This document shows, piece after piece, positions 1,099-39,381 of a stretch of 64,000 nucleotides of DNA; within the stretch, counting starts at the first letter, position 1, and every line of letters starts with the position of its first letter. The DNA comes from an uncultured Smithella sp. Its GTDB lineage: Bacteria > Desulfobacterota > Syntrophia > Syntrophales > Smithellaceae. The stretch spans positions 498 to 64,497 of the forward strand of contig CAYMYR010000007.1 of the NCBI GenBank assembly GCA_964394715.1. Direction: 5' to 3'. A program made the position numbers and the translations under genes. The notes beneath the pieces are model-generated. The model saw only the letters and a program-made list of their open reading frames with translations, was not told the DNA's origin and did no database searches.

Positions 1099-1896
1099 TT
1101 AATCCGGGCGCATGGCGTCAAGTTTCATGAAGCCAAAGGGAGCAAATGCTTGCGGGTCCGCTTCCGCGACAATGGCGCCCGGCATCATCGTGTTATCCCC
1201 TACCGTGTAAACAGCCCCTAAGACTCGAACGATTTCCACATCGCCCCAAAAATCGTGTTTTGATGAACGGAAAGTCATTTCTGCCTGTCCCATCTTCATG
1301 GACTTGGGACGCATTTGAACCGTTTCGCGCATCAGGCGGGGATTGTAATCAAAACCATTCCTCTCCGGCGCATGAAAATATTTGAAGTTGTAGACAACCG
1401 TGTCCGGCTGGGTGGCCTGTCTTTCCATCAGCACCTGCTGGATGGCCTCATCGTTGAACTTTCCGGTCATCGTGGCTTTGATCTCCATAAAGCGCGTGCC
1501 ATGACGTTCCGTCCATCCTTCGAGCCGATCGCCATCCTGCTTCAGCAAAATATTCGCAATTTTCTTAGGATAACCGAAAACCTCCCGACCAAGGACCAAA
1601 GCCATATCGTTGGTGACAGGCATGGAGAGGCAATAAACCCCCTCAACGCCATCGTATTCCGTCAACAAGAATAGGGCGCTCTCCAAATAAGCGACGCCAA
1701 AATTCGTCCGCGGGTAATTGGCAACAAAAGCCGCGCCGATCGGCATCAGGGCCGGCTTCAAAGGGGCGGGAAGCATCCGTGCGACGACCTCCGGTTTTGT
1801 TTCAAAATAAACGGTTAACATTTCCGCGCCATAAAATTCGACTTGCGGCACTTCATAGAAAGCCATCTCTTCCTTGGATTTGACAAAGCCCATCAT
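1099..1896 (-). CDS. Acetoacetate decarboxylase (ADC)-family protein, function unknown
   Basis: 265-aa ORF. Its length and overall pattern resemble the ADC-like beta-cone family, including a GREVFGYPKK block with adjacent lysines as in the ADC active site (from memory). The stop lies 41 nt upstream of the ACAD start at 1057 on the same strand. Confidence 0.65.
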   Translation of the reverse strand: MMGFVKSKEEMAFYEVPQVEFYGAEMLTVYFETKPEVVARMLPAPLKPALMPIGAAFVANYPRTNFGVAYLESALFLLTEYDGVEGVYCLSMPVTNDMALVLGREVFGYPKKIANILLKQDGDRLEGWTERHGTRFMEIKATMTGKFNDEAIQQVLMERQATQPDTVVYNFKYFHAPERNGFDYNPRLMRETVQMRPKSMKMGQAEMTFRSSKHDFWGDVEIVRVLGAVYTVGDNTMMPGAIVAEADPQAFAPFGFMKLDAMRPD

Positions 1897-2182
1897 CGAC
1901 CTCCTTTTTTTTGATTATGCTGAGTGGAATTTTTGTTTAATTAACCTTAATTTCGAGAGGAATACTATCACGATTTACGTTCGAAGTCATATATCTTCAT
2001 CAAGGGCGACGTTTACCGCTTAACAGGAAGAACATCGTACGTATAGTAGAAAGAAGTTATGAGTTGTGATTGTCTTAACATCTTATATCAGGGAAACTCC
2101 GTCCAACGACAGATGAGGCTTGAAGAATGTACGTCTTCAAATGCCGCAATCCATTTGATATATCTTTATCAGTGGCGCTCCA

Positions 2183-4585
2183 TCACCGGCCCACCAGTGT
2201 GCTCCGCCTGATGATTTCGTCCTTCATGGCCGGCGACAGGTCGTTGAAGTAGGCAGAATATCCTGACACCCGCACCAGCAGGTTCGGATAGAGGGAGGGA
2301 TTGTTCCTCGCTTCGATAAGCACCGAGGGGTCCAGCACATTTATCTGGACCTGCATGCCTCCCCGTGAGAAATAGGTCCTTATTAGTGCCTGGAGGGCGC
2401 CGGCCCCCTCGGGACCGCGCAGGGTGTGCGGGTCGAACTTCAGATTGAAATTCAGACCGTTCCCGACCCTGGTCGTGTCGAGGCGGTTCACTGAATTCAG
2501 CAGCGCCGTGGGCCCCCTGAGGTCCTTTCCATTTTCCGGCGATATGCCGGAGGCAAAACTCTCTCCTTTCCTCCGGCCATGGGGGAGGGCGCCCGTAATC
2601 CTTCCAAAATACTCGTGGGCTGTTACTGAGTATAGGCCCATCACATAATCGCCGCCCCTGGTATTCTTCCCCATTGAGGTTAGCACCTTCTCAAAGGTAT
2701 CTGCCACATACCGGGTCCAGCGATCGGCCTCCATGTTGTCGTTGCCGAATTTCACGATGCCGGCGAGATAGGCCCTGTCTTTTTCATCGGGAATATTCTT
2801 CTTTAGGATCTCAACGAGTTCATCGAGGGTGTAGCGCTTGTCCTGGAATACGGACTTTTCAATTGCCCGAAGGGCATCTCCCGTGTCGGCCGGGGCCACG
2901 CACTGGACGCCGGAGAAATTGTACAGGGCGCCGCCGGCTGTGCTGCAGCTTCCTTTCTCGAGGCACCCACGGATCAGCATGCTGGTCAGCGGCGTGGGAT
3001 GATACAGCCGGTTGGCCGTTTCGACTGCGCGCAGGTCGCGGACGAGACTTCCCAACAAAGTGCGGAGCTGCGTCTCGAAGGCTGATAGCAAATCATCCAT
3101 GGAAGACATGGACTTCGGACCCGGGGTGGACGCCCCGGATCTGAATATCTTCCCGAATCGCTTCCCCCTGTTCAGGGCGATCTCAAGGACACCGGGAACG
3201 TTGAATATGGCCGCGTCGGTGGACGAAAAGCTTTTGCCCTGTGAAACCGGCTCCACGCAGCCCACGCCGGTGTAGTCCCTCGCGTCGCACGGATCGTAGC
3301 CGTGTTTCACCATGGACGCAACGATTGCCTCGTCGCCGTAGAGGGCGGGGGAATTGCTTCCCGCCGCCAGCATTGCCGTGATCGACGCGAGGTACTGCGC
3401 CGGTGAACCGCGGTGCACCCGGGCATGGTAATTGGGCTGCCGCATCCTGAGCTCATTCATTATTTCCAGGAAGATATATGAGAGCTCGTTGGTGGAATCG
3501 TTTCCTTCGCCGTCGGTCCCACCTACGGTCACTACCTGGCCGTTGAACATCCCCCCGTGGAAATTGGTGAGGTGGCGGGAAAAGACCGGGATGATCTCGG
3601 ACATCTTTATGGAAAAGCAGGAAAGCATCTCCTTTGCCGATTCTCGGTCCAGTTTTCCCGACTGCAGGTCCCTGCTGTAATAGGGATACAGGTATTGGTC
3701 CATCCGTCCGGGACACACCGAGTTGTCGAGGCTCTCAAGGTTCAGGGCGATCTGCGCGAAAAAGAGTGACTGGAGAGCCTCGCGGAACGTCCGGGCCCCG
3801 AACCGGGGAACCCGGCGGCACACATGGGCAATTTCCATCAGCTCCCGCCGGCGTGCGTTGTCTTCCTCGGCCGAGGCCATCTCCTCGGCGAGGACCGCAT
3901 ACCGCTCGCCGAAGCGTGCCAGACCCTCGCAGATGATCTTTACGCCTTCGTAAAAATTCCATTCCCCCGAACCCGGTTTCGTTCCTGCCTGAAGCCCGGA
4001 TGCCTTGTGCCTGTACCCATCCGTACCGATGGCGAGGAGCGTTTCATAGTCGGGGGCGAAGTGGGATATGCCCCCGGATTCATTGATCAGGTACCATCGG
4101 GCCTTGAGCTGGTCGAGAATGAACCTCGCCTTGGCGAACGGCGAACGGAAAGCCCTGAAGCCCAGGAAGCGGAAGAGCCAGAAGGGGATGATCCGGAAGA
4201 GCTTTCGTTTTTCTTTAGGCGATATCCCGAGGGGGTTCGTTTCTCTACTGGTGAAGGTGAAGAGGTCGAGGAGCACCGGGATACCGTGGAGCTCGGGGAA
4301 AATGGAACCGCCGACGCGCTTCGATGTGTAATTGCCGACGATGAGTTCGTGGGGGTATATTCTGACGCTCTTCGCTGCAAGTACGCCGGAAAGCGCCTCG
4401 GCAATGGCGACAGGCGCCGGTTTTTTCCTGTTGGACCGCTGGCGGTAATACTCCGTCCAGAGAAGGGCGCGCTCCGTGCAGATGCCGGGCCGGCAATCCG
4501 TCACGGCTTTTTTCAGCTCCGCTATTCTTTCGGTTACCCCTTTGTCGTTTTCGTTGTATGCTTTCTCAGCTGTACACGATTGCAT
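2183..4585 (-). CDS. Glycyl radical enzyme, PFL2/glycerol-dehydratase-like clade, substrate unknown
   Basis: ORF 2183..4591, with the start moved to ATG 4585 (GAAGGAGG 6 nt upstream). Has the C-terminal glycyl-radical motif LVRVSGYSAYFNDL and a Cys loop GVGCVEP (Cys-x-Glu). About 800 aa. Confidence 0.9.
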   Translation of the reverse strand: MQSCTAEKAYNENDKGVTERIAELKKAVTDCRPGICTERALLWTEYYRQRSNRKKPAPVAIAEALSGVLAAKSVRIYPHELIVGNYTSKRVGGSIFPELHGIPVLLDLFTFTSRETNPLGISPKEKRKLFRIIPFWLFRFLGFRAFRSPFAKARFILDQLKARWYLINESGGISHFAPDYETLLAIGTDGYRHKASGLQAGTKPGSGEWNFYEGVKIICEGLARFGERYAVLAEEMASAEEDNARRRELMEIAHVCRRVPRFGARTFREALQSLFFAQIALNLESLDNSVCPGRMDQYLYPYYSRDLQSGKLDRESAKEMLSCFSIKMSEIIPVFSRHLTNFHGGMFNGQVVTVGGTDGEGNDSTNELSYIFLEIMNELRMRQPNYHARVHRGSPAQYLASITAMLAAGSNSPALYGDEAIVASMVKHGYDPCDARDYTGVGCVEPVSQGKSFSSTDAAIFNVPGVLEIALNRGKRFGKIFRSGASTPGPKSMSSMDDLLSAFETQLRTLLGSLVRDLRAVETANRLYHPTPLTSMLIRGCLEKGSCSTAGGALYNFSGVQCVAPADTGDALRAIEKSVFQDKRYTLDELVEILKKNIPDEKDRAYLAGIVKFGNDNMEADRWTRYVADTFEKVLTSMGKNTRGGDYVMGLYSVTAHEYFGRITGALPHGRRKGESFASGISPENGKDLRGPTALLNSVNRLDTTRVGNGLNFNLKFDPHTLRGPEGAGALQALIRTYFSRGGMQVQINVLDPSVLIEARNNPSLYPNLLVRVSGYSAYFNDLSPAMKDEIIRRSTLVGR

Positions 4586-5492
4586 CGACACCCTCCTTCT
4601 GAAAAAGAGATTTCAGTTCTTCCATTTTATCCCGCTCCTGTGCCTCGATGACCTGCGGCCTTTGACTGGTATTGATCCATGGGAGCTTGTCCCTGACGAG
4701 GGGATTATAGGGCAGGCAGTGGATCGTGCGGATTCCTTTTGAGAGAATGAAGGATGCGCAGTGCCTGATGTTTTCGATGTTATCGTTCATGCCGGGTATG
4801 ACCGGTATCCGCGGCTGGAGACAGCCGTGAGTGGTGGCGAGGGCGGAGAAGTTATCGAGGATGCGCAAATTGTCCCGGCCGGTGAGCTCCCGGTGTTTTT
4901 CACTGTCCATGTGTTTCAGGTCGTAATAGATGAAATCAGCGGACCGTACCAACATATCCATGAGGGACCTGTCGAAAAAGCCGCATGTTTCGACCGTAAC
5001 GGTGATGCCCCGCTTGTGGAGAAGCTGGCAGGCCTGCTCAAGAAAAGCAGGATACATAAGAGGCTCGCCGCCGGAGAAGGTGACGCCGCCGCCGGACTCC
5101 CGGAAAAAATCTATATCCATGGCAAGCTCGGCAGCAAGATCATTGGGCCTCCATTCCTCACCGATAAGGGTGAGGGCGCCGCCGGGGCACGCCTTCGCGC
5201 AATCGCCGCAGGCGTTGCACCGCGAATAATCTATGCGCCGGTCATTGCCCCGGATGATGGCCCCGCATTGGCATGCCGCCTGGCACGAGCCGCACCCGAT
5301 GCAGCGTTCATGCCTGAAGGAGATTTCGGGTTTGGCTGAAAGGGTTTCCGGGTTCTGGCACCAGATGCACCGGAGGGGACAGCCTTTGAGGAATACAGTT
5401 GTCCGGATACCCGGTCCGTCATGGAGGGAAAACCGCTGGATATTGCTGATGATGGCCTTCTCAAGGCCTTCTGATGAAGGTTTTGTGCTCAT
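4566..5492 (-). CDS. Glycyl-radical enzyme activating protein (radical SAM) with ferredoxin-type insert
   Basis: LHDGPGIRTT followed by CPLRCIWC (CX3CX2C). Two extra cluster motifs follow: CIGCGSCQAAC and CNACGDCAKAC. The 3' end overlaps the GRE start by 20 nt. Confidence 0.9.
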   Translation of the reverse strand: MSTKPSSEGLEKAIISNIQRFSLHDGPGIRTTVFLKGCPLRCIWCQNPETLSAKPEISFRHERCIGCGSCQAACQCGAIIRGNDRRIDYSRCNACGDCAKACPGGALTLIGEEWRPNDLAAELAMDIDFFRESGGGVTFSGGEPLMYPAFLEQACQLLHKRGITVTVETCGFFDRSLMDMLVRSADFIYYDLKHMDSEKHRELTGRDNLRILDNFSALATTHGCLQPRIPVIPGMNDNIENIRHCASFILSKGIRTIHCLPYNPLVRDKLPWINTSQRPQVIEAQERDKMEELKSLFQKEGVDAIVYS

Positions 5493-5634
5493 AGTGCACG
5501 CATTTAAAAAATGCCGGATGATCTTGTTTAATAATAAATTGTTTGAATGTCAATAAGATCATGGGGACGCCAATTGCCTCAAAAAAATGTTCCAGAGGGG
5601 GTGGATAAAAGAAGGCGGATCCAGATCCGTTCTG

Positions 5635-6687
5635 TCAGGGATTGGTCTTCCGATAGCTGCCGGGTGTAGTACCGGTCCAGGCTTTGAAGGCATGATAGAA
5701 GTTTGCCACATTCTGATAACCTAACTCGGTTGCAATTTTTTCTATCGGCAGACTCGTTGAAGCAAGGAGATCGAGAGCCTTCTTTTTCCGGATCTCATTG
5801 GAAAGATTTTTGAATGATATGCCTTCTGCGGACAGGTGTCGCCTCAGCGTTCGGGTCGACATGTTCATCCTCCGGGCCAGTTTATCGAAACCGGGAGACT
5901 CGGCCTGCGGAAACAGCAGTTCCTCTTGTATCTTGTCCAAAGTCGACTTTTTCTCATTCAGGCGCGCATAGGCACAATTGCATTCTTTTTCATACATGTC
6001 TTTGGTCAGGGCATTGGCGAGGGGCAAACGGGTGGTCAAATAGTTTTTATCGAAAATGATCTGAAATTTGTCTGCATTGAAGGTAACCGGGCAGCGGAAC
6101 ATATCCTGATAGGTCCTGGCGTATTCAGGCCGGGGATACGTCAGCGTTATCCCTTTCAGAATGAAAGGAGCGCCCAAAGCATTGCAGGCCAGGGTATAGG
6201 CGGACGCCAAATCACGCTCGCATAGGAAGCGCCTCAGATCGCCAAACACGACCAGTTCCCTGCAGCTCATCATGGCGAGATCGTCTTTGACGATCAGTTC
6301 ATATTGGCAATAGGTCTGTGTGAGATCAATGTACTTGAACATGATGCGAAATGCATCAAGGGCTGTTTCACAAAACATGGCCGGTATGGCAACCCGACTC
6401 ATGGCGCTGGCATTGTGCAGTTTGCCTATTTCCAGCCCGAGCTTCGGGTCGGGAATGAGAGAGATGGCTCTCCGGAAGATCTTCAGTTCCTCCTGCGGGG
6501 TGATGAACATTTCGGGATCGGTCAGGTCACTGGTATTCAGCATGCTGCCATACAACAGCACCTCGGCCGGGATGCTGAACTTCTTTGCGTAATCGGCCAG
6601 TATTCTTATGCTGTATATGGACCGCCGAAGCTGCAGACGGTCTGTTGACTTGATATGAATTCTGCTGAGATCGATTGGTTGTTTCAT
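5635..6687 (-). CDS. AraC-family transcriptional regulator
   Basis: C-terminal AraC-type double HTH (RTLRRHLSAEGISFKNLSNEIRKKKALDLL...IATELGYQNVANFYHAFKAWTGTTPGSYR). The start is uncertain: ATG 6687 (MKQPIDL) or the track start 6750. Neither has a clear SD. Confidence 0.8.
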   Translation of the reverse strand: MKQPIDLSRIHIKSTDRLQLRRSIYSIRILADYAKKFSIPAEVLLYGSMLNTSDLTDPEMFITPQEELKIFRRAISLIPDPKLGLEIGKLHNASAMSRVAIPAMFCETALDAFRIMFKYIDLTQTYCQYELIVKDDLAMMSCRELVVFGDLRRFLCERDLASAYTLACNALGAPFILKGITLTYPRPEYARTYQDMFRCPVTFNADKFQIIFDKNYLTTRLPLANALTKDMYEKECNCAYARLNEKKSTLDKIQEELLFPQAESPGFDKLARRMNMSTRTLRRHLSAEGISFKNLSNEIRKKKALDLLASTSLPIEKIATELGYQNVANFYHAFKAWTGTTPGSYRKTNP

Positions 6688-7196: not shown

Positions 7197-9644
7197 ATGG
7201 CAACAAACAGCAAATGGAGTTATCTCAGTGATCCGCCCGTTAAGGGAAGCCCCTTTAGCATTATCCTGGATGAGGACAAGTGCATCGGCTGTGGCATGTG
7301 CGTCAAGCAATGTCCTGCCCAGACTATCGGGATGGAGGATCGAGAGCCATCCATTCACCAGGAGCCGGCCTGCCAGCATCAATGCCCCGCCGGAATCGAT
7401 GTCCGGCGTTACCTCCATCTCCTCACCCATGGCGGGTCTTTTGAAGACGCATGGAAGGTCATCACGGAAGCAAACCCGCTGCCGGCCACAACGGGCAGGG
7501 TCTGCCCCCACCCCTGCGAATCGGGATGCAACCGGAATGCTGTCGACGAATCCCTGAGCATCAACAGTGTCGAGCGGTTTATCGGCGATTACGCCATAGA
7601 GAAAAAACTCCGCTTCCCCAAAAAGAATCTTTTGTCGGGTAACAAAGTGGCGGTCATCGGGTCGGGACCTTCCGGATTGTCCTGCGCCTACCACCTGTCG
7701 CTTGCCGGACATCCCGTTACCATATTCGAATCCCAATCCCAGCCCGGAGGTATGCTGCGATATGCCATCCCCTCCTACCGGCTGCCCAAATCTGTCCTGG
7801 ATGAAGAAATAAAAAGGATCGTCGATCTTGGCGTCGAAATCCGCTGCAACGCGGAAGTGGGCAAAACCTTATCGCTGGAAGATCTCCGGAAAGACTTCAG
7901 GGCCGTTTACGTGGCGATTGGTTGCCAGGACACAAGCAAGCTCGGGATTGACGGAGAAAACGAAGAGCTTGTCCATTCCGGGCTGGAATTTCTGAAGCAA
8001 GCCGCACGGGGATGCAGCGATTTTCCGGGAAAGCAGGTCATTGTTGTCGGCGGCGGCAATACGGCCATTGATGCGGCCCGCTCCCTGAGGCGCATGGGCG
8101 CCAACGTTACTGTACTTTACAGGCGGACGATAAAGGACATGCCGGCCCATGAAACAGAGGTCGCCGAGACGCAGGAGGAAGGTATTACCCTGCAGTTTCT
8201 CTGTGCCCCCGTCGGGATAAAAAGAAACAATACATCCATCACTGTGACCTGCATCAAGATGGAAAGCGGAGAAAAAGACGCTTCGGGAAGGGCACGGCCC
8301 GTTCCTGTTGCCGGAAGTGAATTCACGGTGGAAGCGGACGTGGTGATATCGGCGATCGGACAGGTTATCGCATCGGAAGGATTGACCAGCCTGATCAACG
8401 GAAAGAAAGTCATCGAGGCCGGCTCCAATGGCTTCACAGGTATGAAAGGCGTGTTTGCCGGAGGCGATGCGGTCTCGGGACCGGCAACCGTTACAGCGGC
8501 AATCGGCGCCGGACGCAGAGCGGCTGAAGCTATCGATGCCTATGTTCAGGGCAGAGAACTCTCGGACGGCGAAAAGCTGGAAATCTCATACAAGGACATG
8601 CCCTTTAACGAATACGAAAAAATTCCCCGCAGCCACGCCCCGCTGCTGCCCGTTGCCGAACGGTTCAAAAACATCGGCACGGAGGTTCATCTCCCGCTTC
8701 ATGCCGATCAGGTCATGGCGGAAGCCAGACGGTGCATCCGCTGCGGCAGCTCAAAACCGGCATTTGTCGGTATGCCTTACTTCGGGAAAATCTGCCTGGC
8801 CTGCCGCGACTGCGAAGCAGTGTGCCCGAATCAGGCCCTCCATTTCCCCCATTACTATTTTGTTGAAAAGGGCCGCTGGCATTATGAGTTCGATTACCCC
8901 AAAAAGACGGGAGGCGGATATCCCAATCCCCTTCGGGCGGCAGAGGCGCCTTCGTTCAGTACTATCGCCTCCCAGCTGACCGAAACGGAAAAGGTGATCT
9001 ATCAGCGGAGGTCCACGCGGATCTATAAGCCCGACCAGGTGCCTGATGATATGCTTCACCGGATTCTGGAGGCAGGAAGGTTTGCCCCTTCGGCGGGCAA
9101 CTGCCAGGGATGGAAATTCACCGTACTTCAAGACCGGGCTTTGATGGACGAAATCAGTGATGGAACTAGGAAGTTCCTCCATACTTTTTCCAGACTCTAC
9201 CAGGGCAAAAGCCTGCCACGCACTCTATTGAAAAATATGCTGGCTGTCTTAAAGCCGGATGGCATCGACCAGCGTCCCATGCTGGCCATCCAGGCTCTGA
9301 TGACCCCCAAGTACAGGAAAGAGCCGCAAAGCGTCTTCTTCAATGCCCCCACAGTCATTCTCATTCTTGGTCATAAGCAATACATTTCGGACATGGCCTT
9401 CGGAACCGGAGTCTGTGGCCAGAATATCGTCCTGGCCGCACACTCCCTGGGCCTGGGCACCTGTTACGTGGGATTCGCCACTTCCGCGTTGAACATGGAT
9501 CCGAGAATGAAGAGATACAAAGAACGGCTGGGCATCATCTGGCCTTATGAAACCGTGGCGGAGATCATCGCTGTCGGCTATCCGGCGGTACAGACGGATC
9601 GTGTTGTTGAGAGGGAGTTTCCCAAAATCGTCTGGGTGAAATGA
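7197..9644 (+). CDS. Multidomain oxidoreductase: 4Fe-4S ferredoxin + GltD-like NAD(P)H/FAD oxidoreductase + ferredoxin + nitroreductase domain
   Basis: Domains in order: CIGCGMCVKQCP; a GltD-type cluster region (CQHQCPAGIDV...GRVCPHPCESGCNR); two Rossmann motifs (VAVIGSGPSGLSCAY, VIVVGGGNTAIDAARS); CLACRDCEAVCP; and a nitroreductase block (RRSTRIYKPDQVPDDMLHRILEAGRFAPSAGNCQGWKF). SD GGAAAGGAGAG lies upstream of the ATG. Confidence 0.8.
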   Translation: MATNSKWSYLSDPPVKGSPFSIILDEDKCIGCGMCVKQCPAQTIGMEDREPSIHQEPACQHQCPAGIDVRRYLHLLTHGGSFEDAWKVITEANPLPATTGRVCPHPCESGCNRNAVDESLSINSVERFIGDYAIEKKLRFPKKNLLSGNKVAVIGSGPSGLSCAYHLSLAGHPVTIFESQSQPGGMLRYAIPSYRLPKSVLDEEIKRIVDLGVEIRCNAEVGKTLSLEDLRKDFRAVYVAIGCQDTSKLGIDGENEELVHSGLEFLKQAARGCSDFPGKQVIVVGGGNTAIDAARSLRRMGANVTVLYRRTIKDMPAHETEVAETQEEGITLQFLCAPVGIKRNNTSITVTCIKMESGEKDASGRARPVPVAGSEFTVEADVVISAIGQVIASEGLTSLINGKKVIEAGSNGFTGMKGVFAGGDAVSGPATVTAAIGAGRRAAEAIDAYVQGRELSDGEKLEISYKDMPFNEYEKIPRSHAPLLPVAERFKNIGTEVHLPLHADQVMAEARRCIRCGSSKPAFVGMPYFGKICLACRDCEAVCPNQALHFPHYYFVEKGRWHYEFDYPKKTGGGYPNPLRAAEAPSFSTIASQLTETEKVIYQRRSTRIYKPDQVPDDMLHRILEAGRFAPSAGNCQGWKFTVLQDRALMDEISDGTRKFLHTFSRLYQGKSLPRTLLKNMLAVLKPDGIDQRPMLAIQALMTPKYRKEPQSVFFNAPTVILILGHKQYISDMAFGTGVCGQNIVLAAHSLGLGTCYVGFATSALNMDPRMKRYKERLGIIWPYETVAEIIAVGYPAVQTDRVVEREFPKIVWVK

Positions 9645-27328: not shown

Positions 27329-28351
27329 CTAGAATTCCTCACCGATCCGGAACAGTACTTTTGTGACCAAACCGGTATCAATTTTTTCACGATAAACGGC
27401 AGGCAGGCGTTCCAGGGGTTCAATATCGGAGATCATCGGCCGCGCGTCAATCTTCCCTTCGTCCATCCATTGCAGACACTGGATATTTTCCTGGTGCGAA
27501 TTGGAGATGGACGTTGTCAAACGGATTTCCTTGAGATTCATGAGGAACGGCGCGGAGATGGTGAGCGGAGAAAAGATCATGCTCACGATGCAGATTTCCC
27601 CGTTGTCCATTGAAAGATTGATTGCACGGTCAATATTGGATTTGATGCCGGAGCATTCAAAGATTTTCTGAAATCCGCCGGGAGCAATTGTTGCGGCCTG
27701 TGCGTCTGTATCTTTTTCGAGGGGGTTGAAGACATGGTCGGCCCCATAAAGGAGGGCGATATCCCGCTTTGCCTTTATCGGTTCGAACAGCACGATCGGG
27801 CCATAACCCAGGATTTTGAGAATGCGAACCGCGCAAAGGCCGATGGGGCCGCCTCCCATAACCAGAACAGAGCCTTTTGCACCGCTTGTGCAATGAATCG
27901 CATGCAGCGCTGCGGCAAATGTTTCTGCGAGTGCGGCGTTACGGGAATCGACCCCCTCCGGAATGGGGATCAGCATCTGCGGATAGACCTTAACGTACTC
28001 GGCAAACCCACCCGGTAAATCGCCAATCCCCGTGGTCCGCCTGTGCACACGACAGAGGTGTTCTTTACCGGAGAGGCAGCTTGCACATTTACCGCAGTAT
28101 GTCGGTCTGATGCAAACTTTTGTGCCCACGGCGGGGCCTCCCGCCTGTTCGCCTTTTTCTACAACCACTCCACTGATTTCATGACCGATGATATAGCCCT
28201 CGGGCAGAAGCCCGCCGGTCACCAGGGAATGATCGGAACCGCAAAAACCCGTATTGGCCACCTTGACCAGCACTTCGTCTTCAGCAACTTTATAATCAGG
28301 CACGTCTTCATAAACCAGTCCCTGTGCCTTTCGAAATACAACAGCTTTCAT
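27329..28351 (-). CDS. Zinc-dependent alcohol dehydrogenase (MDR family, threonine/sorbitol/butanediol-DH-like)
   Basis: GFCGSDHS, GHEISG, structural-zinc motif CGKCASCLSGKEHLC, and Rossmann motif VMGGGPIGL. Confidence 0.85.
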   Translation of the reverse strand: MKAVVFRKAQGLVYEDVPDYKVAEDEVLVKVANTGFCGSDHSLVTGGLLPEGYIIGHEISGVVVEKGEQAGGPAVGTKVCIRPTYCGKCASCLSGKEHLCRVHRRTTGIGDLPGGFAEYVKVYPQMLIPIPEGVDSRNAALAETFAAALHAIHCTSGAKGSVLVMGGGPIGLCAVRILKILGYGPIVLFEPIKAKRDIALLYGADHVFNPLEKDTDAQAATIAPGGFQKIFECSGIKSNIDRAINLSMDNGEICIVSMIFSPLTISAPFLMNLKEIRLTTSISNSHQENIQCLQWMDEGKIDARPMISDIEPLERLPAVYREKIDTGLVTKVLFRIGEEF

Positions 28352-28381
28352 GATTTTCCTCCCGGTTCCGGAATGCCGCTG

Positions 28382-29671
28382 CTAGTCTTCATGTTCCAGG
28401 GTAATTCTTTCCACCTTGGCCAAATCCCTTTTATAGAAGAAGGAGCCAATAAAGAAAAGGCCCGATGCCGCCACAAGAAACAACGGCAGCATCGCTACCG
28501 CCGTAGCGATTCCGTATTTGTCGGACATGGCACCGATGAAGACCGGCCCTACGGATGCTCCCAGGAGGTTCTGCACGATGACGCAAAAGGCGTATGAAAC
28601 CGCGCGAAGTCCCGGATGGACCACGTCCTGGGTGACCGCTGCGGCGGCCGGCACGAAGGTCATCACAGTCAGTCCGCCGGCCAAAAGAAGAATATACTGG
28701 GTGGAGCCGGTGAACAATACAAAGGCCATGTAGAAGATGACAGCGGACAGGATGGCGGAGAGGGCGGACAGCAGAAGGCGAGCGTTTTCGCGCTTTTTCG
28801 TCCACATGTCGGCCAAAAAGCCTCCCAGGGGAGCGCCCACGATGGCCATCATCATGATGATGCCAACCTTCATTCCTGCCTGATCTACGGGGATGTTGTA
28901 GACGCGGTTCAGATAACTGGGAAGCCATGTCATCAGCGACGAGGTCACAAAGACCATGGCGGCAAATCCGAAGTAGGTCAAAATCAGCGAGGGCGTGTGG
29001 AGAAATTCACGCGCGATTTCGCCGGTTTTCATTTTGACCTTGGCGGAGGTTTCCTTGACCGTTTTCGTCAATTCAACGGTTTTATAGTCTTTGACGAAGA
29101 AAAAGAGAATTGCGACGATCAGTCCCGGAAGCGCCACCAGTCCGAAGGCATGGCGCCATCCCCAGTGGGTGGCGATGATTCCTCCCAGAGCAATTCCCAC
29201 GGCGCTTCCCAGGGGGATCGACATGTTCCAGATTCCCATCATGCGGGATCTCTTTTCCTCCGGATAAAGGCCGGCAATCATGGCAGTTCCCCCCGGAGCA
29301 TAGCCCGCCTCCCCGATGCCGATCAACATTCTGGCTGCCCGAAGCTGCGAGAAGCTCCGGGTAAGGGCGCAGGCCGCCGTGGCCAGACTCCATATGATCG
29401 CCATCAAACCGATGCTCTTCTTGCGGCTCCAGCGGTCCACGAGGATGGAGACGGGAAAAGTAAAAATGACGATCGACCAGTAAACCGCGGAAACCAGCAT
29501 GCCGCACTGTGCGTCGGTTATTCCCCAATCCGCTTTGATGAAGGGAAACAGAGACGTAACCACCAACCTGTCCACGTAGTCAAAAAAGTAGAGTAGGAAC
29601 AACAGGATAAAGATGTAGTTGGTGTACCCTTTTGATAGCTTGTATTCCTTGGGCGAAGTCAAGTTATTCAT
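28382..29671 (-). CDS. MFS transporter, anion:cation-symporter-like
   Basis: About 12 hydrophobic segments. N-terminal FFDYVDRLVV pattern and MFS motif A (LVDRWSRKKS). Confidence 0.8.
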   Translation of the reverse strand: MNNLTSPKEYKLSKGYTNYIFILLFLLYFFDYVDRLVVTSLFPFIKADWGITDAQCGMLVSAVYWSIVIFTFPVSILVDRWSRKKSIGLMAIIWSLATAACALTRSFSQLRAARMLIGIGEAGYAPGGTAMIAGLYPEEKRSRMMGIWNMSIPLGSAVGIALGGIIATHWGWRHAFGLVALPGLIVAILFFFVKDYKTVELTKTVKETSAKVKMKTGEIAREFLHTPSLILTYFGFAAMVFVTSSLMTWLPSYLNRVYNIPVDQAGMKVGIIMMMAIVGAPLGGFLADMWTKKRENARLLLSALSAILSAVIFYMAFVLFTGSTQYILLLAGGLTVMTFVPAAAAVTQDVVHPGLRAVSYAFCVIVQNLLGASVGPVFIGAMSDKYGIATAVAMLPLFLVAASGLFFIGSFFYKRDLAKVERITLEHED

Positions 29672-29735
29672 ACGAATTCCTCATTTTATTTAAAAGGTTT
29701 GGCTTGCCAGGCCGTTCGAAACAGTAAATCCCAAC

Positions 29736-31433
29736 TTACTGACATTTATATCCTCCGAGATTGGCCAGGGCAACGCTGCCGGGGCTGATCACAGACGAAT
29801 CTACCTTGACGTTGATGCAGGCCGTTTTCCCGGAGGCAAAGGCCGCTTCGAGCGCAGGCCGGATGTCTTCCGGTTTTTCAACAAAGGTGCCGAAGCCTCC
29901 CAAAACCTCCACCATCTTATGGTAATCCACCCAGCCCAGTTCCGTTCCATTCGGGATGCTGTGCCCCAGACGCAGCTGCTGGCTGTGCGCGATCATTCCC
30001 CAGGACTGATCATTGGCGATTACGACCACGATGGGCAGCTTCTTGCGGATCGCCGTATGAAACTCCATGAAGTTGAAACCGGCCGATCCGTCGCCCATAA
30101 CCAAGAGTACGCGCCTGTCCGGGTGTTTGAGCTTGGCCGCATTGGCGTAAGGGATGCCGACGGCCAGGCAGCCGTAAAGACCGTAATCCAGATAGGTCCC
30201 ACCTTTGACAACGGTCCGGGTCATGCCCATCCAGGTGGATGTGTCGCCGCCGTCGGCGACAACGATGTCATCTTCCCGGTCCATGAATTTATTGATTTCA
30301 TTGGCCAGACGCATGGGATGCATGGGCAGGGTTGCGCACTCCCACAAGGGTTGTGCTTCTTTTTTGCCGGCATCATGGGCGGTTCGGACGGTAGCCAGCC
30401 AGGGCTGGTACTGTGCCTTGAGAGTGTCGGCGATCTTTTGTTCATCGAGGTTAGCGTTGAGCTCCTTGAGGAATGACTTGGTGTCGCTTACGATACCGAG
30501 ATCAATCGTCCGGTTGCGCCCGATTTCATCCGGGGCGATGTCAACCTGAATAAATTTCGCCGTCGACGGGAAAATTTCACCGAAGATATAAAACAGACTC
30601 AACCGACCGCCCAGGAAGAGCACCAGGTCCGTGGTCATCAGCGTGATCATGGCCGAGCCGGGGCGGATGGCCAGAGAACCTTCAAAGCAAAGGGGATGGG
30701 TATCGGGGATAACGCCTCTTCCGGCGCCTGCCGTATAAATCGGGATACCGATCTTTTCCACGAATTCGATAATCTCTTTTTCCGCATCCGAATACCACAG
30801 ACCGCTTCCGCCGATCACAATCGGGTTTTTGGCCGCCTTGAGCAGGTCGACCACCTTCAGGGTATTCTCACGGTCAACGGGTTTGGATGAAAGCGTTGTG
30901 CGGGGCTTCTTGACAGCTGCCATATCCACCCTGGCATTCAGGACATTGCAGGGGAACTCCAGGTAGACCGGTCCGGGCCGTCCGCTCATGGCCGCCCGGA
31001 AGGCCATATCGACGTATTCGGGGATGCGTTCCGGAACATAGCAGACGAAGGCCTTCTTCACCATCGGCTCAATAACCGGTAGCTGTGTCATATCCTGCAG
31101 GTCCAGTTTTTCCGCTGCTTCGGTTCCCACGCAGCCGGCAATCAAAATGACCGGTGCGTTGGAGAGCCTGGCGCTGGCGATGCCGCTCAGGGCATTGGTG
31201 AATCCCGGTCCGGCCGTAACCATAGCCACCGCGGGCTTACGGTTCATCCGGGCCGAGGCCTCGGCCATAAAGACCGCCGCCTGTTCATGGCGAACGTCAA
31301 AAATCGTGATGGGTGTATTCTCCAGATACTGGTAAATCGGCGTAATATGCCCGCCGCTCAGGGAATAGATGTAATCCACACCCCGGTCGACCAAAGCATC
31401 CGCGACGAGCTTGCCACCAATAATGTTTTCCAT
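29736..31433 (-). CDS. Thiamine-diphosphate enzyme, acetolactate synthase / oxalyl-CoA decarboxylase superfamily, substrate unknown
   Basis: Start moved to ATG 31433 (AGGAGG 8 nt upstream). Motifs VRHEQAAVFMAEA, GPGFTNA and the TPP motif GDGSAGFNFMEFHTAIRKKLPIVVVIANDQSWG. Confidence 0.85.
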   Translation of the reverse strand: MENIIGGKLVADALVDRGVDYIYSLSGGHITPIYQYLENTPITIFDVRHEQAAVFMAEASARMNRKPAVAMVTAGPGFTNALSGIASARLSNAPVILIAGCVGTEAAEKLDLQDMTQLPVIEPMVKKAFVCYVPERIPEYVDMAFRAAMSGRPGPVYLEFPCNVLNARVDMAAVKKPRTTLSSKPVDRENTLKVVDLLKAAKNPIVIGGSGLWYSDAEKEIIEFVEKIGIPIYTAGAGRGVIPDTHPLCFEGSLAIRPGSAMITLMTTDLVLFLGGRLSLFYIFGEIFPSTAKFIQVDIAPDEIGRNRTIDLGIVSDTKSFLKELNANLDEQKIADTLKAQYQPWLATVRTAHDAGKKEAQPLWECATLPMHPMRLANEINKFMDREDDIVVADGGDTSTWMGMTRTVVKGGTYLDYGLYGCLAVGIPYANAAKLKHPDRRVLLVMGDGSAGFNFMEFHTAIRKKLPIVVVIANDQSWGMIAHSQQLRLGHSIPNGTELGWVDYHKMVEVLGGFGTFVEKPEDIRPALEAAFASGKTACINVKVDSSVISPGSVALANLGGYKCQ

Positions 31434-31466
31434 AATCAATCCTCCTAATGATCGGTACATTGACCG

Positions 31467-32306
31467 TTATAATTCCATACATTGCCCGCCATCAATATTA
31501 ATGGCCTGTCCGGTAATATAGCGCGAAGCGTCTGAGCCAAGGAAGGCAACCAGATCGGCCACTTCACGGGGTGGTCCGATGTAGCCCAGCGGAATCGTTT
31601 TGCACATTTCTTTTTCCCGCTCTTCAATTGTCGTTCCGAAAAAAGACGCCTCCAGTCCGAAACGCCACTTCTCCAGATCCGTGGCGATTTGCCCCGGACA
31701 GATAGCGTTCACACGAATGCCGCTTCCACCCATCTCTTTAGCCATGGTCTTTGTCAGCATGATGACGCCGGCCTTGGCCACCGCATAGGCACTGTTAAAA
31801 ATGGGAGGGACCTTGCCGGCCCGGGAGGCCGTGTTGATGATGCTTGCGGGTTTACCCGTCATAAGTGGGATGACAGCACGCGAGACGCGAAAGACCGAAA
31901 ACAGGTTTACGTCAATCGTTTTGATCCACGCCGCTTCATCATATCCCAGAACCGTATTGGGCACGCCGAAGGAAGCCCCCGCATTGTTGCAGAGAATATC
32001 GACATGGTCAAAACTGTCCGTGATGGTTTTCACCATTTCGGCAATGGCCTGATGGTTCGTAAGGTCGACGGGCACAGCCAGCGTCCGGACGCCGTAAGTC
32101 TTTGCCAGTTCGACGGCAATAGCCGTCATCTCTTCACTCGTAGCAGATTTCAAAGATTGGTCCGACGGCGGCGCGATGCCCAGATCGGCGATGACGATAT
32201 TGCAGCCGCAGGACGCCAGTTTTTGCGCAATTGCATAGCCAATGCCCGTTTTCTTGCCGGATCCTGTGACAATGGCTGTCTTTTCTTTCAAATCACTATA
32301 AATCAT
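31467..32306 (-). CDS. Short-chain dehydrogenase/reductase (FabG-like)
   Basis: Start moved to ATG 32306 (GAAGGAGG 5 nt upstream), overlapping the upstream gene's stop by 11 nt. Motifs [17 protein letters not shown] and YAVAKAG. Confidence 0.85.
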
Positions 32307-34059
32307 CGGTTCCTCCTTCATCGTACCAGTTATGATGGTCCAGGTGAGCGTACTTGGGCAGAAAACGGGTCGGCAAAGCCAATGCATCTTTCCGGAAAGG
32401 CGGGGCCAGCTGCTTGCCATCCACCAGAAATTCGAGAACCGTGGGCTTGCGGCTTTTCAGGCAGGCATCCAATGCTCCCCGGATATCCGCAGGCTTGCTG
32501 ACCTGCATACTGTTGGCGCCCATCGCCTTTGCCACAGGGACAAAGCTTTCCGGATTGGGAATATCGACGCCAATGAAACGGTTATTGTAAAAGTCCACCT
32601 GGTTTTTCGCCTCGGCGCCCCACCACATGTTGCGGAAAACACAGGCAACGACGGGCAGGTTGTGTTCAACGGCCGTGCTTACCTCATGGAGGCTCATGCC
32701 CCACGCACCATCGCCGATGATCGCGATGACCGGTGCCTTGCGTCGGGCGATCTGTGCGCCCAGGGCCGCGGGATAAGCAAAACCCGTATTGCCGAAAGTG
32801 AGCGCCGCGATATGCTGCCGGGGGTGATTGAACTTCAGGTAACTGTTGGCCGTGGAGGCGACGTTTCCGATATCCGTCGTGACAATGGCATCCTCCGGGA
32901 GGGCCCTGGAGATTTCCAGTAGGACACGGCGGGGATTCATGGGATTGCCCTCCACCATTGCCAGAGAGACAATCTCTTTTTCCCAGATCTTTTTTTCCCT
33001 CGCGACGGCGGCCAGACGTTTTTCATTGGGCTTACGTTTCCCGTCCACGGCCTTGAGGCGCTTCAGGATTTCCACCGTGGCCTCCTTTGCGTCACCGATA
33101 ATGCCGACCTCGATGGGATGGGTCCGCGCGATATGCTTGGGATTGATGTCAATCTGAATAATCTTCGCATTCTCCGGGAAGTAGTTGATATCATACTGGG
33201 GCAGCGTCCCAAAGACAGAGAGGCGTGTGCCGATGGCCAGCATAACGTCGGCCCTGGCCAATGTCTTCATGGCCGCCTTGGAGCCCATGTAGCCGATGGG
33301 ACCGACGAACAGCGGATGGTTTCCGTAAAACGCGTCGTTGTGGAGATAGGTCACGGCAACGGGGGCCGTCAGGTGTTCGGCGATCGCCTTCACGATATCG
33401 AGCGCGTCGGCATCCACGACACCGCGTCCGGAAACGATAACGGGGTTTTTGGCTTTGGAAAGCAGTTCGGCGGCCCGGTTCAGCTGTTCCATGGAACCAC
33501 AGCCGCGGTCGTCTACACGGTACTGCGAGGGTTTCAGGATTTTATCCTCCAGTTCGCCATAGAAGTAGTCGCGCGGGATGTCATACAGGACGGCACCGCG
33601 ATCGGCATAGGCGATGCGGAAGGCCGTCCGCAGACAATCAGCCGCGCGTTTGGGATGCGGCACACGGACAACCGCCTTCGTTACCGAACGGAAAACGGAC
33701 ATCTGGTCGCACTCCTGGAAGCCGTCCCAGCCGATTGTGGGTGTTCCGGCCGAGGGCGAAATAATCACCAGGGGCGTATGGCCCATGTTTGCCGCGGCAA
33801 CTGACGTCACCATGTTCGTAATGCCGGGGCCGTTCTGGCCTGTGACGACGCCGCAGCGGCCGGATATGCGGCTGTACGCATCTTCCATGTGGGCGGCGCT
33901 CTGTTCATGACGGACGGGGATGAACTTGATCCCGGCCGTCGGGAAGAGGTCAAGCATGTCCATGAACGCTGATCCGACGATGCCGCATACATGATCCACG
34001 CCTTCCGCAAGCAGCGTCTCAACGATGGCTTCGCTGGGTGTCATTTTAATCTTTTTCAT
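32296..34059 (-). CDS. xsc: TPP enzyme, probable sulfoacetaldehyde acetyltransferase (Xsc-like)
   Basis: Start moved to ATG 34059 (GGAGGT 7 nt upstream), giving 587 aa. The blocks [61 protein letters not shown] and [17 protein letters not shown] match my memory of characterised Xsc better than IlvB or Gcl. The TPP-enzyme call is secure. The Xsc assignment is tentative and was not checked by alignment. Confidence 0.6.
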
Positions 34060-34127
34060 TTTGATTACCTCCACTATCGATTCATTGTTGAATGGTTGAA
34101 AAACGCGGTCGTTCACGGCCCGTTTCA

Positions 34128-35324
34128 TTATTTCCGTAAAACCGCCCAGGATTCCTCGGCGATCATTTTCTCTTCATCCGTCGGTATGACGAAAACATTG
34201 ATCTTTGATTCCTGCGTGGATATGATCCTTTCGTCATCACCCCTGTCATTTTTGTCTTCATCAATGATGATGCCCAGCCAGGACAAGAAAGTGCAGATCC
34301 GCTGGCGCGTTTGCGGCGAGTGCTCACCGATCCCTGCCGTGAAGGCCAGGGCATCCAGTCCGTCGATGGCCGGAATGAGGGAACCTATACCCCGGGCCAC
34401 ACTGTATGCAAAAACGGTCAGTGCAAGGTGCGCCCGCTCATGGCCTTCGGCGGCCGCCTTTTCCAGGTCGCGAAAGTCAGGGGACAGGCCGGAAATACCC
34501 AGTACGCCGCTCTGCCGGTTCAGGATATCCATAACGCCGGCCATGGAGGATCTTTCCTTTTCCATGATGAACGAAACGACTGCCGGATCGATGTCTCCCG
34601 AGCGCGTACCCATGACGAGTCCCGACAACGGCGTAAATCCCATCGATGTATCCAGCGACTTGCCTCCCGCAACGGCGCAGAGACTGGAGCCGGCGCCGAG
34701 ATGACAGGTGATGATTCTCGGTGTTGCGGTCTTATCCTGCAGGAGTGCCGCCGTGCGGCGGGCGACATACCGGTGTGACGTTCCATGGAAACCGTAGCGA
34801 CGGATATGGTCCTCTGTATAATAACGATAAGGGATCGCGTAGGTGAAAGCATGCGCGGGCATGCTCTGGTGAAAAGCTGTATCGAACACCGCCACCTGGG
34901 GTACGCCGGGCATCAGGTTTGTGCAGACATCGATCCCCATCAGGTTCGGCGGATTATGGAGCGGCGCAAGTTTCTTCGTTGATTCGAGTATTTTGCGTAT
35001 GGCGGGATCGACGACAACAGAGGTGCGGAAATGTTCACCGCCGTGAACGACACGGTGCCCGACACCACCAATTTCCTTCATATCCGTCAGAATGCCTTGC
35101 CTGCCGTCAACCAGATGGGTCAGCAAGGCATGCACCGCATCATGATGGCTGGAAAGAGGCGTTTTGTCCAGAAAGGTTTCACGTCCCTGCACGTCATGTT
35201 GAAACAAGGCATCGGGCAGACCGATGCGGTCCGCCTGGCCCTGGGCCAGGACTTGGCTTGTCTCCATCTCGTAGAGCTTGTATTTGAGAGATGAGCTTCC
35301 GCAATTCAAGACCAGTATCTTCAT
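34128..35324 (-). CDS. ackA: Acetate kinase
   Basis: [35 protein letters not shown] and AFTAGIGE. The start lies 15 nt after the dsrP stop. Confidence 0.92.
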
Positions 35325-35339
35325 AAGATATAAACCTCA

Positions 35340-36527
35340 TTACTTTCCATTTGCAACAGGCCGGTTATCGTCACTGCCCGTTTCACTGTATACGCTGATA
35401 AAAATCTTATAAAGCAGGGTCAAAATCAGAAAACCTATCGCCCATACCCCTGCGGTAATGGCGATTTCCGCCCCCGTCGGGAAATATTCGGTAACGGTTT
35501 CCAGCGGCGAGGGGATGAAACCGGTTACGACCAGACCGAGGCCCTTTTCAATCCAGAGAGAAACAAATACAAAAACACAGGCGATGGCAAGCCACTCTTC
35601 CCTGCGGCGGATGGACGGGATGATCAGCATCGTCAGAGCGGCAAAGGCCAGTACGGCGGATGTCCACATCCAGGGCACAAGATTATGATGGTCATCCAGA
35701 CCTGCAAAAAGGTACTGGAAATGACGGGTTTGTTCCGGGATCTGACTGTAAAAGGCGGTAAACAGTTCCATGAGGACAAAAAAGATGCTTGCCGCCAGAG
35801 CATAAACCACGATCTTGGAAAGGGCCTGAATGGCCCTGTCGCCGGCGTCAAACCGTCCATAACGTTTCAGGATCAGGCAGAAAAGAATCAACAGAGCCGG
35901 ACCCGAAGCAAAGGCGGAAGCCAGGAATCGTGGTGCCATAATCGCTGTCAGCCAGAAACTTCTGCCGGGAAGACCTGCATAGATGAAGGCCGTTACCGTG
36001 TGGATGCTGATCGCCCAGGGAATCGAGAGATAGATCAGGGGCTTGATCCAGCCGGGGGGAGGGACTTCCCTTCGATTACAGGACAGGATCATCCAACCGG
36101 TAATGATGTTGATCAGGAGATAACCGGAAAGGACGATCATGTCCCAGAAAAGGATGGAGGTCGGCTGCGGATGCAGCAGGACATTCATGACGCGGGATGG
36201 CTGGCCGAGATCAACGAAGACGAACAGTATGCACATGATGACGGCGGCGACAGCCAGGAACTCACCCAGCACGGTGATCTTTCCGAATGCCTTGTAGTCA
36301 TGCAGGTAGTAGGGCAGTACCAGCATAACGGCCGACGCAGCAACACCTACCAGGAACGTGAACTGGGCGATATAAAGCCCCCAGGAAACGTCCCGGCTCA
36401 TTCCCGTAACGCCCAGACCGTAATCGAGCTGGTGCAGATAGAAGAGAACTCCTATTGTCATCATCACAAGCAGGAAGATGATCCAGATCCAGTATCCGCG
36501 GCTGCCTTTCAAGGCTTTTTCCAGCAT
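35340..36527 (-). CDS. dsrP: DsrP, NrfD/PsrC-like integral membrane subunit of DsrMKJOP
   Basis: 395 aa with about 10 hydrophobic helices. Positioned directly after dsrO. Confidence 0.85.
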   Translation of the reverse strand: MLEKALKGSRGYWIWIIFLLVMMTIGVLFYLHQLDYGLGVTGMSRDVSWGLYIAQFTFLVGVAASAVMLVLPYYLHDYKAFGKITVLGEFLAVAAVIMCILFVFVDLGQPSRVMNVLLHPQPTSILFWDMIVLSGYLLINIITGWMILSCNRREVPPPGWIKPLIYLSIPWAISIHTVTAFIYAGLPGRSFWLTAIMAPRFLASAFASGPALLILFCLILKRYGRFDAGDRAIQALSKIVVYALAASIFFVLMELFTAFYSQIPEQTRHFQYLFAGLDDHHNLVPWMWTSAVLAFAALTMLIIPSIRRREEWLAIACVFVFVSLWIEKGLGLVVTGFIPSPLETVTEYFPTGAEIAITAGVWAIGFLILTLLYKIFISVYSETGSDDNRPVANGK

Positions 36528-36534
36528 GGTGCCC

Positions 36535-37715: not shown

Positions 37716-37777
37716 CTTTTCTATTTCCCGACGTAAAAACCCAGGTCGTCATTCCCTGCAAATCCATCTACCGTTCA

Positions 37778-39379: not shown

Positions 39380-39381
39380 GG

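Follow-up and report, generated by a model that had tools for sequence, protein, structure and literature searches.

Glycyl radical enzymes (GREs) of the CXE (Cys-x-Glu) class are defined by a glutamate located two residues past the catalytic cysteine (PMC13450708). In one of them, glycerol dehydratase (GD), Glu435 deprotonates the C1 hydroxyl and His164, the proposed acid, protonates the leaving hydroxyl (PMC13450708). According to the same review, dated June 2026, PFL2 is still a function-unknown GRE, debated for two decades between GD and an alkylsuccinate synthase (MASS), and whole GRE clades are still without a function (PMC13450708). Here, we describe a clade of this kind, starting from a stretch of 64,000 nt (hereafter, the window) of an uncultured Smithella sp. 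(contig CAYMYR010000007.1, positions 498 to 64,497), which encodes a GRE and its activating radical S-adenosylmethionine (SAM) enzyme, or activase. We propose, with a probability of roughly 60%, that these two genes form a cassette which is mobile and self-contained and whose enzyme would carry out a CXE-type radical 1,2-elimination (or an ether- or ring-opening isomerisation) of a hydroxylated, non-sulfonate substrate larger than glycerol.

The locus lies on the minus strand and reads, in the order of transcription, AraC-family regulator, radical-SAM activase and GRE. Residue numbers of the GRE count from the GTG at 4591 (802 aa) and not from the ATG at 4585 (800 aa). The features of the activase-GRE pair are the following:

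2183..4585 (from the ATG) or 2183..4591 (from the GTG), minus strand: GRE with PFL-like and Gly_radical domains, 800 aa
2258..2272, minus strand: Gly loop RVSGY (Arg774-Tyr778) with the radical-storage Gly777, aligned with GD Gly763
3248..3262, minus strand: Cys loop GCVEP (Gly444-Pro448) with the thiyl Cys445 and Glu447 of the CXE motif, aligned with GD Cys433 and Glu435
4061..4063, minus strand: codon of His177, in the column of GD His164, CutC Asp216 and HypD His160
4094..4204, minus strand: cationic and aromatic helical segment, Lys130-Trp166 ('KLFRIIPFWLFRFLGFRAFRSPFAKARF...'), directly before the strand that bears His177
4566..4585, minus strand: 20-nt overlap of the activase stop and the GRE start, ATGCAATCGTGTACAGCTGA; GGAGG precedes the ATG
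4566..5492, minus strand: activase, a GRE-activating radical-SAM enzyme of 308 aa, with the Pfam rSAM domain and two Fer4 motifs (TIGR02494)

The GRE starts at the ATG at 4585 rather than at the GTG at 4591. The exact 800-aa product of the ATG form is present in the public protein collection, where the sole name in its 90% cluster is 'formate acetyltransferase [Smithella sp./Smithellaceae]'. Both GRE domains are recognised by Pfam (PF02901, E 7.7e-157; PF01228, E 4.3e-28). The activase scores 309 bits against the curated model TIGR02494, whose cut-off is 174. Its translation contains the CX3CX2C motif (CPLRCIWC; Cys38, Cys42 and Cys45) and a ferredoxin-like insert with eight further cysteines in two CX2CX2CX3C motifs. 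An identical 20-nt overlap is found in homologous loci with 66-94% identity (L005-L009, L014, L039 and L053), and its maintenance down to 66% identity suggests a translational coupling of the activase and the GRE. A small-subunit open reading frame (ORF) was looked for on the coding strand after the GRE and none was found; likewise, no microcompartment or aldehyde dehydrogenase family was matched among the scanned ORFs of the window. An earlier description of this DNA, made from the letters alone (hereafter, the sequence-only reading), had already reported three co-directional genes, the 20-nt overlap, the ferredoxin-insert activase, the GCVEP loop, an Asp downstream in SSTDAA and the absence of microcompartment, aldehyde dehydrogenase and small-subunit genes, all of which our analysis confirms. 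Its assignment of the protein to the GREs also holds, since Cys445 and Gly777 align with GD Cys433 and Gly763. As judged from its catalytic Cys, its Gly loop and the adjoining activase, the protein is a member of the GRE superfamily (PFL-like division).

None of the NCBIfam equivalog cut-offs is reached by this GRE (HypD NF043068, 456 bits for a cut-off of 1100; HpfG, 434 for 1000; HpsG, 431 for 1000; CutC TIGR04394, 402 for 1050), and its score against the broad PFL2-3 subfamily model TIGR01774 (649.0 bits) falls just under the cut-off of 678.2. Among solved structures, the best sequence match is PFL2 from Archaeoglobus fulgidus (2F3O; E 1.8e-151, 37.7% identity), followed by GD (1R8W; E 1.1e-134, 35.3% identity) and then by propanediol dehydratases (PDs). 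In phmmer, sulfonate lyases were matched with E values of 1e-92 to 1e-101, MasD with 7e-67 and benzylsuccinate synthase (BSS) with 3e-49. An AlphaFold2 model built from 63 family sequences (pLDDT 89.2, pTM 0.90) has GD (1r8w), PD (9rco) and PFL2 (2f3o) as best folds, each with a TM of 0.92 and an rmsd of 1.9; sulfonate lyases occupy ranks 40-44 of the fold search and X-succinate synthases ranks 47-50. The entry 9RCO is the PD of Raoultella (PMC12756279).

A homologue search in 5.8 billion proteins retrieved at least 120 clusters of about 800 aa, sharing 62-96% identity and carrying default names only. Furthermore, 50 loci were collected from one genome per GTDB species. By identity, the hosts are Smithellaceae (94%), HGW-Deltaproteobacteria-1 (91%) and Leptospirales (82%), then many Desulfobacterales, Spirochaetota and Thermoanaerobaculia (57-71%) and finally a group of Bacteroidota and Competibacteraceae (about 50%). 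In a neighbour-joining tree (100 bootstraps) that included GD, PD, YbiW, CutC and HypD as characterised references, the last four obtained from plasmid matches, the family is monophyletic (bootstrap 100). It joins a GRE from an Acinetobacter plasmid and the group at roughly 50% identity (100), and next, at 96, the family of a second GRE of the window, fused to its activase (60572..63910). These families and PFL2 are split from GD, PD, YbiW, CutC and HypD with a bootstrap of 99; our GRE and PFL2 are on the same side of this split with only 37.7% identity, in a tree with few reference classes. Since several GRE classes were left out, the tree shows a separation from five characterised enzymes and not a full placement. 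Within the comparisons made here, the clade is distinct from every characterised GRE family. The sequence-only reading had termed the GRE an orphan and had suggested a phylogeny with characterised enzymes: both GREs of the window fall apart from the five references, no characterised family claims the cassette GRE and no neighbour indicates its substrate.

The active site combines conservation and replacement. In the alignment, GD Cys433, Glu435, His164, Asp447, Tyr640 and Gly763 correspond to Cys445, Glu447, His177, Asp459, Tyr654 and Gly777, which are all invariant or nearly so among 120 homologues. The GCVEP loop, the RVSGY loop and His177 occur in 120/120 family members, and Asp459, within SSTDAA, is 14 residues past Cys445. 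The other invariant or near-invariant stretches are Leu288-Asp289-Asn290, Phe349-Asn350-Gly351-Gln352-Val353, Ser457-Thr458-Asp459-Ala460, Gly652-Leu-Tyr654-Ser-Val-Thr657 and Ser776-Gly777-Tyr778, in addition to Gly444-Cys-Val-Glu-Pro448. The alignment columns were checked against published residues of CutC (Asp216, Phe395), HypD (His160, Asp278, Asp339, Phe340) and GD (His164, Tyr339). Several residues of the GD pocket are replaced, and these replacements are invariant across the family: His281 by Asn290 (with a new Asp289 beside it), Tyr339 (Phe in PD) by Gly351, Pro641 by Ser655 and Trp445-His446 by Ser457-Thr458. For the diol-binding His and Asp of dehydratases, which the sequence-only reading had proposed to look for, the result is that His177 and Asp459 are present and that the position of GD His281 is occupied by Asn290. 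Other eliminases differ at these positions as well: CutC Asp216, Phe395 and Thr502 are His177, Gly351 and Asp459 here, and HypD Asp278, Asp339 and Phe340 are Asn290, Asn350 and Gly351.

On the evidence of this alignment, the clade keeps the acid/base machinery of the oxygen-sensitive diol dehydratases (His177, Glu447, Asp459 and Tyr654) yet has a different substrate pocket, which is probably wider and differently lined than that of glycerol and propanediol dehydratases. That the active site is so strictly conserved suggests that the whole clade acts on a single defined substrate. Since the side chains that replace the GD pocket residues are smaller, this substrate may well be larger than glycerol. 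Given the wider and differently lined pocket, it would differ from glycerol, propanediol, choline, hydroxyproline and C2/C3 sulfonates and would probably exceed them in size.

From these residues, we infer the following reaction. The activase would reductively cleave SAM and install a radical on Gly777, which would be transferred to Cys445 as a thiyl radical. The latter would take a hydrogen from the carbinol carbon of the substrate, and Glu447 would deprotonate the carbinol hydroxyl to give a ketyl radical. The neighbouring carbon would then shed its leaving group, most likely an oxygen function, with His177 as the proton donor and with the support of Asp459 and Tyr654. Finally, the product radical would regain a hydrogen from Cys445 and depart as an aldehyde or a ketone. 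By the same chemistry, a variant that opens a ring or an ether (an 'isomerase') would also be possible. For instance, the GRE isomerases YbiW/PflD (1,5-anhydro-hexitol-6-phosphate C-O lyases) and HplG possess the CXE motif and a His at the matching position, and their machinery opens the C-O bond of an ether while no small molecule is lost overall. However, they are only 31-33% identical to our GRE, no sugar-phosphate genes are found near our cassette, and YbiW has Gly-His, Tyr and Gly where our family has Asp-Asn, Gly and Asp459.

Comparison with A. fulgidus PFL2 shows several shared positions: both have the His, an acidic residue followed by an amide (Glu-Gln in PFL2, Asp-Asn here), a Ser-Ser (Ser-Thr here) before the Asp and a small residue in the column of GD Tyr339. 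The 2006 structure paper on PFL2 by Lehtiö et al. reportedly favoured a dehydratase whose substrate would exceed glycerol in size. However, PFL2 belongs to a different subclade and has Glu-Gln, Asn and Ile where our family has Asp-Asn, Gly351 and Pro448, and its segment 134-166 lacks the basic charge of our family.

Several points weigh against the proposed elimination on a larger hydroxylated substrate. The reaction type would rest on residues shared with enzymes that are only 35% identical, and, as HypD shows, the CXE Glu and the His may differ in their roles from one enzyme to another. Moreover, GRE decarboxylases were left out of the residue-level comparisons, and the tree was built without sulfonate lyases, decarboxylases, X-succinate synthases and PFL. 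The size of the pocket was judged from aligned residues and not from model coordinates. In addition, all 50 loci are from metagenome-assembled genomes (MAGs). A literature search for a GRE glycol-ether lyase, or for the present family in Smithella, found nothing.

The genomic surroundings point to a unit of two genes. Across 45 loci, the activase is the sole constant neighbour of the GRE; it lies directly upstream in 35/45 loci, most of the others being cut by contig ends. Pfam censuses of 114 flanking proteins (family with at least 57% identity) and of 58 (group at roughly 50%) revealed no recurrent metabolic partner. They did reveal a divergent GntR/FCD regulator in 10 loci and a membrane SpoIIE phosphatase (sensor) in 5. 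The surroundings of the pair in the window are as follows:

2179..5678, minus strand: shared cassette, the only stretch homologous (blastn, 92% nt identity) to the Smithellaceae chromosome OY821638.1 (locus L005)
5493..5634, minus strand: spacer between the AraC and activase genes, with a TTGACA hexamer at about 5546..5551, conserved in L005 and L036
5635..6750, or 5635..6687 from the first ATG (350 aa), minus strand: AraC-family regulator with the Pfam domains Arabinose_bd and HTH_18
1099..1896, minus strand: acetoacetate-decarboxylase-family (ADC-like) gene, PF06314, 286 nt downstream of the GRE

The shared stretch comprises both cassette genes, the spacer and 44 nt from the 3' end of the AraC gene, and the flanks in OY821638.1 are unrelated. 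Downstream, homology to every relative stops within about 20 nt of the GRE stop, and homology to L052 stops at 2164. Since homology is limited to 2179..5678 between unrelated flanks, the two-gene cassette would be the unit that moves and persists. An IS200-type Y1 transposase gene is located immediately downstream of the GRE in L060, and IS200/Y1-like genes are found upstream of the cassette in five other loci. Together with these neighbours, the sharp breaks of homology (2164..2183 and 5678) suggest that the cassette is mobile.

The ADC-like gene was considered as a pathway partner and rejected: homology ends at the GRE stop codon and no homologue of this gene is found in 50 related loci. At its spot, contigs with an identical activase carry PilZ, DinB-like and UPF0270 genes. 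Since it has no counterpart beside the cassette in any relative, its presence results from a strain-specific rearrangement.

A 49%-identical GRE followed by an activase was also found on the Acinetobacter towneri plasmid p4SAAt401 (L004; NZ_CP127890.1, 43672..47047). Acinetobacter is a genus regarded as strictly aerobic. This mobilizable plasmid carries the GRE among insertion sequences, a context that is uninformative. The pocket of this GRE differs from that of the family, with Gly-Glu and with a Trp in the column of GD Tyr339.

Two types of regulators are associated with the cassette. In the window, the AraC gene separates the cassette from a divergent CoA-ester operon, which contains genes for a ferredoxin/GltD-like/nitroreductase fusion, an SCP2-type thiolase, an AMP-ligase, two acyl-CoA dehydrogenases, an epimerase and a short-chain dehydrogenase/reductase (SDR). 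Both the AraC gene and this operon accompany the cassette in L036 and in each of the six contexts with an identical activase. That the GRE might feed the operon, as the sequence-only reading had also proposed, would rest on a linkage that is stable at the strain level only. The first gene of the operon (7197..9644, plus strand), kept with AraC in close relatives, encodes an unusual 815-aa fusion of a 4Fe-4S ferredoxin, a GltD/DPD-like FAD-NAD(P) oxidoreductase and a nitroreductase. The sequence-only reading had placed the cassette under the AraC regulator. The adjacency holds only here and in the closest relatives (L036 and the contigs with an identical activase), which weakens this placement. 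Against it also stand the 44 nt of AraC left in L005, a weak terminator-like hairpin after the AraC gene (5616..5629, minus strand), the TTGACA hexamer in the spacer and the FadR-like GntR regulators found elsewhere. AraC control of the cassette is plausible as a lineage-specific arrangement. An inverted repeat upstream of the activase (5518-5528/5552-5562) is conserved in neither L005 nor L036 and is therefore probably no operator. A search for a riboswitch or another RNA upstream of the cassette found none.

In many relatives (L006-L008, L012, L013, L015, L026, L031 and L046), a gene for a GntR regulator is divergent from the activase-GRE pair. The best NCBIfam and PDB matches of these regulators are FadR proteins; the scores are below the cut-offs, and the PDB matches (E 1e-16 to 1e-20) cover both domains. 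Their loci carry a palindrome, TGGTA(A/T)TACCA, in fuller form (A/T)(A/T)CTGGTA(A/T)TACCAG, located about 900-1100 nt upstream of the GRE start. It is usually present twice per intergenic region: one copy is close to the regulator gene, and the other follows a TTGACA before the activase at a distance of about 20-25 nt and overlaps the putative activase promoter. The predicted operator of the FadR-like GntR regulator (for example in L031 and L008) is TGGTAATACCA. Such sites number 14 in 9/10 GntR loci and 1 elsewhere in 822 kb, and this concentration points to a dedicated repressor-operator pair. We infer that expression of the cassette would be substrate-inducible, probably under the control of the adjacent AraC regulator in this lineage and of a FadR-like GntR repressor in much of the family.

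The regulators also bear on the first of the alternatives, a lipid-linked radical lyase or dehydratase that would act on a hydroxylated amphiphile, such as the ether of a 1-O-alkylglycerol, a vicinal diol with a long chain or a hydroxyacyl thioester, and would yield products that enter beta-oxidation. We consider it unlikely. The linked regulators are most similar to FadR and have a FadR-like operator, CTGGT-N3-ACCAG, but FadR-subfamily regulators bind many acids and the matches are below the FadR cut-offs. The operon of CoA-ligase, acyl-CoA dehydrogenase and thiolase genes adjoins the cassette in the window, and FadD-like and enoyl-CoA hydratase genes are located upstream of it in L005 (Smithellaceae, 94% identity). 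However, most loci have no lipid gene nearby and, beta-oxidation genes being abundant in these genomes, their proximity may be due to chance. There is a precedent for ether cleavage by GREs in YbiW and PflD.

A further point in favour of a lipid-like substrate is the cationic and aromatic segment that precedes the active-site strand. The sequence-only reading had noticed it in both GREs of the window, and it is a real, family-wide feature. Residues 134-166 have a mean net charge of +5.4 and 7.4 aromatics in the family, against -1.7 and 4.5 in characterised eliminases. The segment is conserved throughout the family; the fused-paralogue family and the group at roughly 50% are intermediate. It is helical and confidently modelled by AlphaFold2. 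Since it equals the YWxGKT region of GD in length, it represents a homologous region of changed composition rather than an insertion. A role at the entrance for the substrate is plausible, given its position immediately ahead of the active-site strand. The conserved residues of the pocket are nevertheless polar (Asp, Asn, Ser and Thr), which speaks against an amphiphile. It is likewise doubtful that the clade is a new GRE class attacking lipid-derived amphiphiles anoxically, with the segment as amphiphile gate and a FadR-like, acyl-CoA-responsive repressor as switch.

The proposed elimination on a larger, hydroxylated substrate must also be weighed against an ordinary B12-independent glycerol or 1,2-propanediol dehydratase that is merely divergent in sequence. 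GD DhaB1 of Clostridium butyricum (1R8W) and the PDs of Roseburia (5I2A) and Raoultella (9RCO) are among the best structural matches and share with our GRE the fold, the positions of the catalytic Cys, Glu, His, Asp, Tyr and Gly and an activase with a ferredoxin insert; the TIGR01774 score, just under its cut-off, goes in the same direction. This interpretation is nonetheless improbable. Identity to GD and PD is only 33-36%, and the residues that hold the third carbon or hydroxyl in GD are invariantly changed (His281 to Asn, Tyr339, or Phe in PD, to Gly and Trp445-His446 to Ser-Thr). The YWxGKT region is recomposed, and no microcompartment or downstream aldehyde-handling genes are found here. 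Moreover, about 45 loci have no microcompartment, 1,3-propanediol dehydrogenase or aldehyde dehydrogenase partner, and the clade is split from GD and PD at 99% bootstrap.

The sequence-only reading had also proposed a sulfonate C-S lyase of the isethionate or 2,3-dihydroxypropane-1-sulfonate (DHPS) type that would supply sulfite to the Dsr system of the window. Xsc (841 bits for a cut-off of 676) and DsrMKJOP and DsrAB (at about 32-47 kb) are indeed encoded there. Furthermore, the CXE motif is shared with IslA, IseG and HpsG, which include stand-alone activase/GRE pairs outside microcompartments in sulfite-respiring Deltaproteobacteria, and IslA-type enzymes are likewise 'orphan' GREs (PMC6386719). 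However, all three structurally characterised C-S lyases have an Arg/Gln/Arg triad at Cys-279, Cys-275 and Cys+210 (Arg189, Gln193 and Arg678 in IslA), whose Gln is described as unique to C-S lyases (PMC6386719; PMC6453916). Mapping by these offsets and by the CutC/GD alignment, in place of a direct alignment to a lyase sequence, puts the invariant His177 at the position of the Gln, and no conserved Arg or Gln is found in 165-181 and no Arg in 645-663. Identity to these lyases is 27-29%, their E values and fold ranks are behind those of GD, and the HpsG and HpfG models give less than half of their cut-offs. In addition, about 28 kb separate the cassette from Xsc, Leptospirales and Bacteroidota MAGs contain the cassette too, and the window has its own route to sulfite through Xsc. 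A sulfonate lyase is thus rejected on residues, scores and context, with very little probability left to it.

The sulfur genes form an organosulfonate-to-sulfite respiration island in their own right (27329..47314, minus strand). It encodes a Zn-dependent alcohol dehydrogenase, an MFS transporter, a thiamine diphosphate enzyme, an SDR, Xsc and an acetate kinase, directly followed by DsrPOJKM, a second DsrK-like/NarI-like pair, a CobB-like amidase and DsrBA. For a genome that is Smithellaceae-like and nominally syntrophic, such an island is notable.

A function in hydrocarbon activation, similar to that of alkyl- or aryl-succinate synthases and already suggested for PFL2/PflD of A. fulgidus, is highly improbable. 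In its favour, the closest solved relative of our GRE is PFL2, for which this function is debated (PMC13450708), the host family Smithellaceae includes alkane degraders and the segment before beta-1 is hydrophobic. However, the fumarate-binding Arg at Cys+15 (BSS Arg508, MASS Arg492) is Ala460 here, the CXE Glu is present, neither ORFs for beta, gamma or delta small subunits nor a recurrent small neighbour are found, and MasD, BSS and the X-succinate synthase folds are among the more distant matches.

The second GRE of the window, which the sequence-only reading had described as a fused paralogue, is real and 35% identical to the cassette GRE:

60572..63910, minus strand: fused paralogue of 1112 aa, with a radical-SAM activase domain (no ferredoxin insert) N-terminal to a CXE-type GRE

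The same fused architecture is found in more than 120 clusters (67-99% identity) from Smithella, Desulfomonilia, Desulfobacterales, Myxococcales and CSSED10-310 MAGs. This sister clade (bootstrap 96) shares with the cassette family GCVEP, the His and Asn-Thr-Asp motifs, a similar hydrophobic PFW segment and the same host lineages, whereas its pocket has Glu-Asn and an Asp in the column of GD Tyr339. The words 'fused' and 'fusion' are nowhere in the 2026 GRE review (PMC13450708). In terms of novelty, the family of activase-GRE fusions may surpass the clade of the cassette GRE.

Since many GRE clades remain without assignment, one more such clade is unsurprising in itself. It is, however, a genuine and well-conserved clade outside the characterised families and is worth an enzymologist's attention. 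It is tractable, with a compact two-gene cassette and an invariant active-site signature, and it is spread over Desulfobacterota, Spirochaetota, Acidobacteriota and Bacteroidota MAGs. Moreover, the dedicated repressor and defined operator of many loci could be used to fish for the inducer. If the enzyme were a variant diol dehydratase, the gain would be modest. Knowledge of the substrate would bring a further reaction into anaerobic carbon cycling and would help to annotate hundreds of genes mislabelled 'formate acetyltransferase'. If the substrate were a lipid amphiphile, the clade would supply a missing enzyme for the anaerobic turnover of ether lipids and diol lipids in sediments and digesters.

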